24,000 nt of DNA from Desulfobacterales bacterium (GCA_050115795.1 JASFPT010000025.1:235-24234); one strand, 5' to 3'. Positions 14,163-15,682 are shown, numbered from the stretch's first letter. Numbers and translations are program-made. The notes: generated by a model not told the origin, from the sequence alone.

Positions 14163-14453
14163 TCAGCAGCAGCTGCCGCTGCCGCAGGCGGCTTTGTCTT
14201 TGCCGCGGACCCAGGACTGGATGATGTAAGAGGCGCAGCCGACCCCCGGGTGCACCGTCACCGCCGCCGTGGGGCAGTTCATGGCGCAGGCCCCGCACTC
14301 CATGCAGCCGTCGGCGTCGACGACCCGGGCCTTTTCCCGTTCCAGCACCAGGACGCCGTGGGGGCAAACGGTCGTGCAGGCGCCGCAGCCGACGCAGAGG
14401 CCGTCATCGAGCTGGAGTGTCGTCACGCCGGTCAGGTATCGGAATTCTCTCAT
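14163..14453 (-). CDS. hgcB: HgcB, 2x[4Fe-4S] ferredoxin of the mercury methylation pair
   Basis: Last 96 codons of ORF 14163..15506, from ATG 14453: MREFRYLTGVTTLQLDDGLCVGCGACTTVCPHGV...DGCMECGACAMNCPTAAV...PGVGCASYII...CGSGSCC. It has two CxxCxxCxxxCP motifs, the extra conserved Cys (GVGCA) and the C-terminal vicinal CC typical of HgcB. It starts 23 nt downstream of the hgcA stop. Confidence 0.9.
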   Translation of the reverse strand: MREFRYLTGVTTLQLDDGLCVGCGACTTVCPHGVLVLEREKARVVDADGCMECGACAMNCPTAAVTVHPGVGCASYIIQSWVRGKDKAACGSGSCC

Positions 14454-14476
14454 GGTTTGTCTTTCTCGGGCTCGGG

Positions 14477-15682
14477 TCAAATCGTAAATGCCGATCCGAT
14501 CCAGGCTGCCACCGCAGCCAGTGCCGCTGCGGCCTGGAGGGGAATGGCGCTTCGCATTTCCTTTTCCACCCCCGACGGAGAAGTAAAGGGGGTGGCTCCG
14601 GTAAAGTTCATCGCCAGGTGGGAGGATACGGCGGTGGCGAAAAAGATTACTGCCGTCCAGCCCCAGAATCCGAGTGCGTTCGTGCTGGCGGCGGCGACGA
14701 CAATGCCGGCAACGCAGCCGAGCAGGGCGCCTTTGATGGAAAACGCCCGGCCCGGAAGCCAGGGCAGCAGCGCCGGCATCAGAATGCCGCCGGAGACCAC
14801 CCCGGCCAGGTAGGCGGCGGCCGCCGTCAGCCACCGGTGCCAGGCTGCATCCAGGGAAAACACCCAGGGCCCGACCCCGGACAGGAGAAACAGGGCGGCC
14901 AACACCGCAAGACTCGGCTTGGGAACCGCCGCCAGTTCCACCGGAATCAGCACGATCCGTTCGACGAGCGAAAAGGTCACCTTCCGGGCGGACGGGTCGC
15001 ATTTCATTCCAGCACGGAAAAAGGCCGGCAGATCGACCGCCCGCACCGGTCCCCAGGCCACGGAAAAGCCGCTCCGGCGGCGGACCCGGCTGGCGGACAC
15101 CCCGGTGGCCCCCAGCTGCGGGAGCACCAGGGTTCGGTGGTCCACGACCTTGGCAAGCCCGGTCGATTCGACCCGTCGCACGACCTCGTCGGTGGAGAAG
15201 GTCCCCTTGCCGGCGGCGCACCATACGTTGACGCCGCAGGTGTCGAGCACCATGATCCAGGCGTCGATGGCTGCAAGGTGCCGGCGGAGGGCATCGAAGG
15301 TGAGTTTGTAGTTGGCGGTCACCAGCACCGGGCTCTGCCTGTCGGGCCGGCCGACCGCGTAGAGCCCCGGGCTGACTCGATAGCGGTCGCGGCCTATGCC
15401 GAGGCGCACGCGAAGCGCACCGGCTTTGTCGGCGATGGAACGCTTGGTGCTGATCCGGGGCACCGGGCCGGCTTCGGTCTGGACAAACTCCGCCACGAAC
15501 CCGCACACCGTGTAGCCGGGCCGCTCCCAGGGGTCCGCACCGGCCGGCGCCGGACCGCCGCAGCAGTCGAAAGCGGAGGCATCCCGCCGGCCGGCCGAAT
15601 CGGCATCGTCACAGCACCGGCAGCTGTCGTCGGGTTTTCCCGGGGCCAGGGGGAAGGGGGTGGTGTCCAGTTGGTCTGCCAT
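14477..15682 (-). CDS. hgcA: HgcA, corrinoid membrane protein of the mercury methylation pair
   Basis: Contains the diagnostic cap-helix motif NVWCAAGK (15229..15206) within LVTANYKLTFDALRRHL..IDAWIMVLDTCGVNVWCAAGKGTF. This is followed by LPQLGATGV, WGPVRAVDLPAFF and a C-terminal multi-TM domain. I prefer ATG 15682 (SD AAAGGA 7 nt upstream) over TTG 15715. Confidence 0.92.
   Translation of the reverse strand: MADQLDTTPFPLAPGKPDDSCRCCDDADSAGRRDASAFDCCGGPAPAGADPWERPGYTVCGFVAEFVQTEAGPVPRISTKRSIADKAGALRVRLGIGRDRYRVSPGLYAVGRPDRQSPVLVTANYKLTFDALRRHLAAIDAWIMVLDTCGVNVWCAAGKGTFSTDEVVRRVESTGLAKVVDHRTLVLPQLGATGVSASRVRRRSGFSVAWGPVRAVDLPAFFRAGMKCDPSARKVTFSLVERIVLIPVELAAVPKPSLAVLAALFLLSGVGPWVFSLDAAWHRWLTAAAAYLAGVVSGGILMPALLPWLPGRAFSIKGALLGCVAGIVVAAASTNALGFWGWTAVIFFATAVSSHLAMNFTGATPFTSPSGVEKEMRSAIPLQAAAALAAVAAWIGSAFTI

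Follow-up and report, generated by a model that had tools for sequence, protein, structure and literature searches.

The window analyzed here, a stretch of 24,000 nucleotides (nt) from the genome assembly of a Desulfobacterales bacterium (GCA_050115795.1 JASFPT010000025.1:235-24234), contains on its minus strand the gene pair hgcA-hgcB (Table 1). The hgcAB genes let anaerobic bacteria convert inorganic mercury to toxic methylmercury, and no other genetic marker is known for the formation of methylmercury by microbes. Both open reading frames (ORFs) are full length and keep all invariant residues, and they represent two separate genes on the same strand, with a gap of 23 nt between the hgcA stop codon and hgcB. 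An initial annotation, made from the DNA alone, had proposed a 401-amino acid (aa) protein with the motif NVWCAAGK, followed 23 nt downstream by a 96-aa ferredoxin with two CxxCxxCxxxCP motifs, an extra cysteine and a terminal Cys-Cys pair. All of these features were retrieved in the translations, NVWCAAGK being found at the expected position with its cysteine as residue 155. The ATG start codon of hgcA is preceded by AAAGGAAC, and a ribosome-binding site is present ahead of the gene. An alternative in-frame TTG at position 15715 would add 11 residues, resulting in an HgcA of 412 aa, but the ATG is favored because the closest HgcA homologue (P0001) begins with the equivalent MAEKLDPTPFPL. In addition, a consensus scan of the 189-nt gap between tgpA and hgcA yielded three sigma-70-like sites, compared with 0.2 expected from shuffled sequences, a pattern match that is not functional evidence; the candidate site lies approximately 45 nt upstream of the hgcA ATG. 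A scan of the whole window against Rfam at gathering thresholds gave no match, so that upstream of hgcA there is neither a cobalamin riboswitch nor any other RNA element, and no tRNA genes were found in the window. In guanine plus cytosine (GC) content, hgcAB is similar to the 10 kb that flank it; the content is uniform across the region, with a measured value for the host of approximately 62-67%. A recent horizontal transfer of hgcAB was considered, but the GC content gives no compositional sign of it.

Table 1. Features of the window, with those of the hgcAB locus listed before the other genes
Feature	Coordinates	Strand	Remarks
hgcA coding sequence, corrinoid methyltransferase subunit	14477..15682	-	ORF without internal stops, 401 aa + stop
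hgcB coding sequence, 2x[4Fe-4S] ferredoxin	14163..14453	-	translation, 96 aa + stop
N-terminal Cys-rich extension of HgcA, residues 1-73	15464..15682	-	outside the NCBIfam profile, which begins at residue 74
HgcA segment matching corrinoid iron-sulfur protein (CFeSP) gamma subunits	15008..15463	-	sequence and fold matches; alternating strands and helices in the model
Cap-helix motif NVWCAAGK	15206..15229	-	residues 152-159, Cys155 codon 15218..15220, read from the sequence
HgcA TM domain, five TM helices	14480..14980	-	approximately residues 235-401; hydropathy and AlphaFold model
Sigma-70-like promoter candidate (TTGACG, 16-18 nt, AATAGT/TAGTAT)	15726..15755	-	consensus scan, pattern match only
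PEP-synthase-like fragment	2-976	-	
HU	1338-1640	+	
Poly-gamma-glutamate hydrolase	2404-3018	+	
Response regulator and dCache histidine kinase	3007-5255	-	
PEP-synthase-like protein, 917 aa	5392-8145	-	
TauE	8829-10370	-	
Two response regulators	10270-11463	-	
ResIII helicase	11682-13055	+	
Ca2+/Na+ antiporter	13183 to ~14150	-	
TgpA transglutaminase	15872 to ~18100	-	domains TgpA_N, Transglut_core, DUF4129
ORF without family match	~17818-18888	-	where a DUF58 protein is usual
MoxR AAA+ ATPase	18800-19735	-	
Rhomboid	19736-20611	-	
EamA	20555-21811	+	
AcsV/RACo-like activase	21826-23385	-	
Sir2	23398-24000	-	
TM, transmembrane; PEP, phosphoenolpyruvate.

The assignment of the two proteins to HgcA and HgcB, as put forward by the initial annotation, was borne out by curated hidden Markov models. 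Indeed, HgcA matched the NCBIfam equivalog HgcA_corrinoid (NF040863) with 445.1 bits (E 1.4e-133), exceeding the cut-off of 275 by 170 bits, over profile positions 1-324 of 325 and HgcA residues 74-399. Similarly, HgcB matched HgcB_ferredoxin (NF040864) over its complete length (positions 1-93 of 93) with 120.5 bits (E 2.1e-35; cut-off 99). Given these E values, chance matches to the two families can be dismissed. The fusion model HgcAB_like (NF043039) gave 201.8 bits with HgcA, under its cut-off of 285, and the model for the acetyl-CoA synthase gamma subunit (CFeSP) gave 77 bits against a cut-off of 306, with only positions 322-445 of 450 matched. Hence, and with hgcB being a separate gene, the pair does not belong to the fused or paralogous class, in line with the earlier assignment. 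Pfam returned only CdhD (PF03599; 50.5 bits) for HgcA and generic Fer4 families for HgcB, as the literature describes for both proteins (PMC7305189). A sequence search of the PDB with HgcA retrieved only CFeSP large subunits, through their C-terminal corrinoid domain (2h9a, 4c1n, 4djd, and 9fzy; chain residues ~300-445), and no experimental HgcA structure.

The corrinoid-binding part of HgcA carries the cap-helix motif, none of whose eight residues (N152-K159) varies in an alignment of 53 homologues, the identical NVWCAAGK being found in 117 of 120 matches. In HgcA of Pseudodesulfovibrio mercurii (Desulfovibrio desulfuricans) ND132, the conserved cap-helix cysteine Cys93 is the Co-thiolate ligand (PMC7305189, PMC11588087), and Cys155 is predicted to be its equivalent, acting as the lower axial ligand of the cobalt. 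A CFeSP-like corrinoid-binding domain is supported by PF03599, by sequence matches to the CFeSP gamma subunits 2h9a, 4c1n, and 4djd that cover HgcA residues 87-226, and by Foldseek matches of the HgcA model to the same three structures. This model, obtained with AlphaFold2 from the 53-homologue alignment (mean predicted local distance difference test score [pLDDT] 85; predicted template modeling score 0.78), displays a domain of alternating strands and helices, a short cap helix (residues 153-159), and five long helices spread over residues 239-400. The latter (239-268, kinked; 277-308; 314-332; 339-361; and 369-400) agree with the hydrophobic segments found by hydropathy analysis within residues 235-401, so that the C-terminal multi-TM domain of the initial annotation was recovered by both approaches, and five TM helices are also described for HgcA in the literature (PMC7305189). 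Within the membrane domain, the loop NFTG-TPFTSPSGVEKEM (residues 359-376) is invariant among the 53 homologues. When the model was compared with the PDB by Foldseek, the top match was chain 9a0b_A of the integrative model 9a0b of ND132 HgcAB (E 9e-24, 55% identity over 324 columns), the sole HgcAB entry in the PDB and reached by the fold search, with CFeSP large subunits ranking below it. This match ties the HgcA of the window directly to the experimentally validated enzyme of ND132.

HgcB possesses the two cluster motifs CVGCGACTTVCP (C20-P31) and CMECGACAMNCP (C50-P61), and its cysteines are located at positions 20, 23, 26, and 30, at positions 50, 53, 56, and 60, and at positions 73, 90, and 95-96, the last two being C-terminal. 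The eight cluster cysteines and Cys73 bear the same numbers as those of clusters A and B and Cys73 in ND132 (PMC7305189), and the C-terminal pair is found at 95/96 instead of 94/95. According to the mutagenesis of ND132 HgcB as summarized in PMC7305189, the strictly conserved Cys73 is essential and at least one of the C-terminal cysteines (94/95) is required. A reading of the hgcB TGA as a selenocysteine (Sec) codon was rejected; it follows the usual terminal Cys-Cys and was taken as the true stop.

The N-terminal Cys-rich extension of HgcA contains CRCC (C21, C23, and C24), FDCCGGPAP (C40-C41, codons 15560..15565), and ERPGY. Residues C40, C41, P55, and G56 are invariant among the 53 homologues, and residues 1-40 are predicted to be disordered (pLDDT <50). 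Haft and Gwadz have described an N-terminal extension bearing a PCUGP selenocysteine motif in most HgcA proteins, with CC in place of CU, often packed with extra cysteines, in some homologues, and have proposed an interaction of the CC tail with soft metals (bioRxiv 10.1101/2022.07.06.499078). As the codons of C40-C41 are TGC TGC, the tail of the HgcA in the window is of the Cys-Cys and not of the Sec form; the DCCGGP tail is thus the non-selenoprotein version of the PCUGP motif, which has already been described. Selenocysteine was discarded for the window hgcAB as a whole, the codon for Cys73 of HgcB being TGC as well. The tail is of the CCG type in 64 of the 80 nearest genome loci and of the Sec type C-TGA-G in two (L065 and L074), one of which belongs to a Pseudodesulfovibrio metagenome-assembled genome (MAG) with a tail matching the published one of ND132. 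The other 14 tails comprise a single cysteine in Desulfotignum loci and some CC or CR variants, and two are without any cysteine.

A search of the protein database with HgcA yielded 7985 homologues at E<=1e-10, the best of which is 82% identical; those that are named are designated mercury methylation corrinoid protein HgcA and originate from Desulfobacteraceae and Desulfobacterales MAGs. Of the loci in the GTDB species set, L001 from an uncultured Desulfobacterales MAG ranks first (71% identity), and the other loci (49-60%) occur nearly all in Desulfobacterales, Desulfosarcina, Desulfotignum, or Olavius symbionts. As no genome of this species set is closer than 71%, the host is a distinct species or genus. 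It is an uncultured bacterium with affinity to the Desulfobacterales. An identical HgcA occurs on contigs of at least three independent assemblies (JGI 3300042731, ENA ERZ27251530, and Logan SRR9045292), indicating that this uncultured bacterium is recurrent in the environment.

The gene neighborhood was compared by tblastn of 15 window proteins against the 80 related loci, with flanks of up to 10 kb on each side. A homologue of hgcB adjoins hgcA in 77 of these loci and is the only one of the compared genes that travels with hgcA, in agreement with published descriptions of hgcAB as a small unit of two genes that is horizontally mobile (PMC4646819). The remaining neighbors are common only to the closest MAG (L001), with which the order TgpA-hgcA-hgcB-Na/Ca exchanger-helicase-response regulator-response regulator-TauE-PPDK is shared. 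No ArsR-like regulator as in ND132 is adjacent to hgcA, the upstream gene being tgpA and the gap of 189 nt being unable to hold one. The gene map of the window, built from Pfam and NCBIfam matches, revealed no mer or other mercury-related genes, no acs or cdh genes, and nothing that points to halomethane or arsenic metabolism.

Among the closest known systems, that of P. mercurii ND132 (DND132_1056/1057) is the genetically and biochemically characterized one. The resemblance extends to the order of hgcA and hgcB, the corrinoid domain, the cap helix N(V/I)WCA(A/G)GK that holds the ligand cysteine, and the five-helix membrane domain, the model 9a0b being matched structurally over the full length at 55% identity, and, in HgcB, to both CxxCxxCxxxCP motifs, Cys73, and the C-terminal Cys pair at matching positions. 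Differences concern the tail of HgcA, which is Cys-Cys (DCCGGP) with an extra CRCC in the window and reported as Cys-Sec (PCUGP) in ND132, the additional C90 of HgcB, and the upstream gene, which encodes a TgpA-type transglutaminase, with no ArsR-like regulator next to it. The HgcA proteins of Desulfobacterales, Desulfosarcina, and Olavius-symbiont Delta MAGs are similar in length (~400 aa), in their CC-type extension, and over their full length (50-82% identity). The large subunit of CFeSP (AcsC/CdhE; 2h9a, 2ycl, and 4djd) shares the fold of the corrinoid domain and the cap helix, whereas HgcA adds the membrane domain, the cap-helix Cys ligand, and the Cys-rich N-terminal tail, and a small-subunit partner is not present in the window. 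Finally, the HgcAB-like fusions (NF043039, Pyrococcus furiosus type) consist of homologous corrinoid and ferredoxin modules, but the genes of the window are unfused and score under the cut-off of that family. P. furiosus, with its fused HgcAB-like protein, did not produce methylmercury (PMC4646819). The locus is a routine orthologue of a known system, mechanistically offering nothing new, to which a standard annotation pipeline would give its name; the judgment of the initial annotation that the interest lies elsewhere than in novelty was hence sound.

With intact genes, family membership, catalytic and cluster residues, fold, and gene pairing all in place, the region very probably encodes a genuine HgcAB mercury methyltransferase made up of two subunits. 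Its chemistry and methyl donor would be those of the purified P. mercurii enzyme, for which S-adenosylmethionine as methyl donor, Co-thiolate ligation, and methyl transfer to Hg(II) have been described (PMC11588087). HgcA would be a membrane-anchored corrinoid protein, with a cytoplasmic domain binding cobalamin, the five C-terminal helices as the anchor, and a flexible N-terminal tail carrying a Cys-Cys pair in place of the Cys-Sec of many orthologues. The di-[4Fe-4S] ferredoxin HgcB would reduce the corrinoid of HgcA to Co(I), which would accept a methyl group from S-adenosylmethionine and yield a Cys-thiolate-ligated methyl-Co(III). The methyl group would be transferred to Hg(II) held by thiolates, probably those of Cys95 and Cys96 of HgcB together with Cys73, and CH3Hg+ would be released last. 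Shuttling of Hg(II) and CH3Hg+ is probably the task of Cys73 and the flexible, cysteine-bearing tail of HgcB (PMC7305189). Several points weigh against this interpretation. Methylmercury production by the host would follow by analogy with characterized strains, and methylation rates vary widely among hgcAB carriers, being set by mercury uptake, cobalamin supply, and expression. Furthermore, HgcA is placed by its NCBIfam scores, the taxonomy of its best hits, and its 55% identity to HgcA of ND132, and there is continuing debate about the native physiological role of HgcAB (ArsR-regulator preprint; 2026 preprint).

This debate leads to an alternative that is compatible with the identity of the proteins as HgcAB, namely that their physiological substrate is not mercury and that mercury methylation is an incidental side reaction of, for instance, the dehalogenation of CCl4 or trihalomethanes or other one-carbon or metalloid chemistry. 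[quoted passage not shown] However, the window contains no pointers to halomethane or arsenic metabolism either, the halomethane claim rests on a preprint, and the tails of HgcA and HgcB, rich in Cys/Sec, seem fit for soft-metal binding (bioRxiv 10.1101/2022.07.06.499078). A copy that merely looks intact and is silent or decaying, being unexpressed or non-functional in the host, would agree with the extremely low HgcAB expression in model strains (PMC11588087) and with the lack of a conserved adjacent regulator. The full-length ORFs with every invariant residue kept, the recurrence of the identical protein in several independent metagenome assemblies, the GC content matching that of the surrounding genes, and the existence of both a promoter-like and a ribosome-binding site make such a state of the locus very unlikely.

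Confusion of HgcA with a related protein is less probable still. The significant hit to the fusion model might raise the suspicion of an HgcA-like paralogue that does not methylate mercury, for example one of the fused HgcAB-like class of P. furiosus or a divergent marine variant, but a sub-threshold score of 201.8 bits is what is expected for related families; with the HgcA model exceeded by 170 bits, separate genes 23 nt apart, a canonical cap helix, and 55% identity to a functional HgcA, mistaken identity of this kind is extremely improbable. The chance that the pair represents a CFeSP (AcsC/CdhE-like) of the Wood-Ljungdahl pathway with a ferredoxin partner and no role in mercury methylation is close to nil. 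Although Pfam assigns only CdhD to HgcA, the PDB sequence matches are CFeSP large subunits, and a RACo/AcsV-like activase is encoded 6 kb away, only the C-terminal corrinoid domain is matched and the N-terminal part of CFeSP has no counterpart in HgcA. Indeed, this difference in domain architecture refutes a CFeSP identity. The CFeSP model stays far under its cut-off (77 versus 306 bits), the five-helix membrane domain and the cap-helix cysteine are present, the latter being absent at that position in CFeSP (PMC7305189), and acs or cdh genes do not occur in the window.

The activase, which is related to ATP-dependent reductive activases of corrinoid proteins, is encoded 6 kb upstream of hgcA between the Sir2 and EamA genes; it contains RACo linker, middle, and ASKHA C-terminal domains and is without the N-terminal ferredoxin domain found in canonical AcsV. 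It matched the NCBIfam model AcsV with 474 bits (cut-off 800) over positions 130-632 of 632, in a window without acs or cdh genes. There is a very slight chance that this orphan activase serves HgcA by rescuing inactive Co(II)-HgcA, with HgcB as ferredoxin in trans, in which case it would be an unrecognized third component of mercury methylation in this lineage. As a partner of HgcAB it was nevertheless set aside, the link being probably coincidental; none of the 80 related loci has an activase homologue within the fetched flanks (up to 10 kb on each side), with the sole syntenic genome breaking off too near hgcA to cover this position.

Concerning the other neighbors, a typical MoxR-DUF58-TgpA cluster (15872..19735, minus strand) lies directly upstream of hgcA and is unrelated to hgcAB in other genomes. 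On the other side, the Ca2+/Na+ antiporter gene (13183..14367) displays no ATG, GTG, or TTG at the start predicted from homology (region ~14082..14160). Its in-frame canonical starts are at 14367, which overlaps hgcB, or at a GTG at 14082, which cuts the first TM helix short; translation might also begin at an ATC or CTG after AAGGAA at ~14155. The JGI call for this contig stretches the antiporter ORF to 371 aa and leaves hgcB uncalled. Further downstream, the window contains two genes similar to those for PEP synthase/PPDK_N. In the 917-aa product of the longer one, approximately 175 residues at the N terminus are not covered by the PEP-synthase/PPDK matches, and no listed model reaches past approximately residue 626. 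This gene is next to those encoding a dCache histidine kinase, three proteins with receiver domains, and a long permease of the TauE family, all of which may constitute a signaling or phosphotransfer module. The TauE/SafE permease ORF is unusually long (513 aa from stop to stop, with the Pfam match at residues 166-449). As the upstream response-regulator ORF (10270..10707) ends within its 5' part, the true start of the permease is probably internal.

The value of this locus is ecological, as that of a probable methylator lineage, and annotational. As to the latter, the JGI call lost hgcB to an over-extended neighboring ORF, indicating that surveys requiring an hgcA-hgcB pair could undercount such loci. 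As to the former, the intact, canonical hgcAB pair flags the uncultured Desulfobacterales-like host as a likely mercury methylator in the habitats where it occurs.

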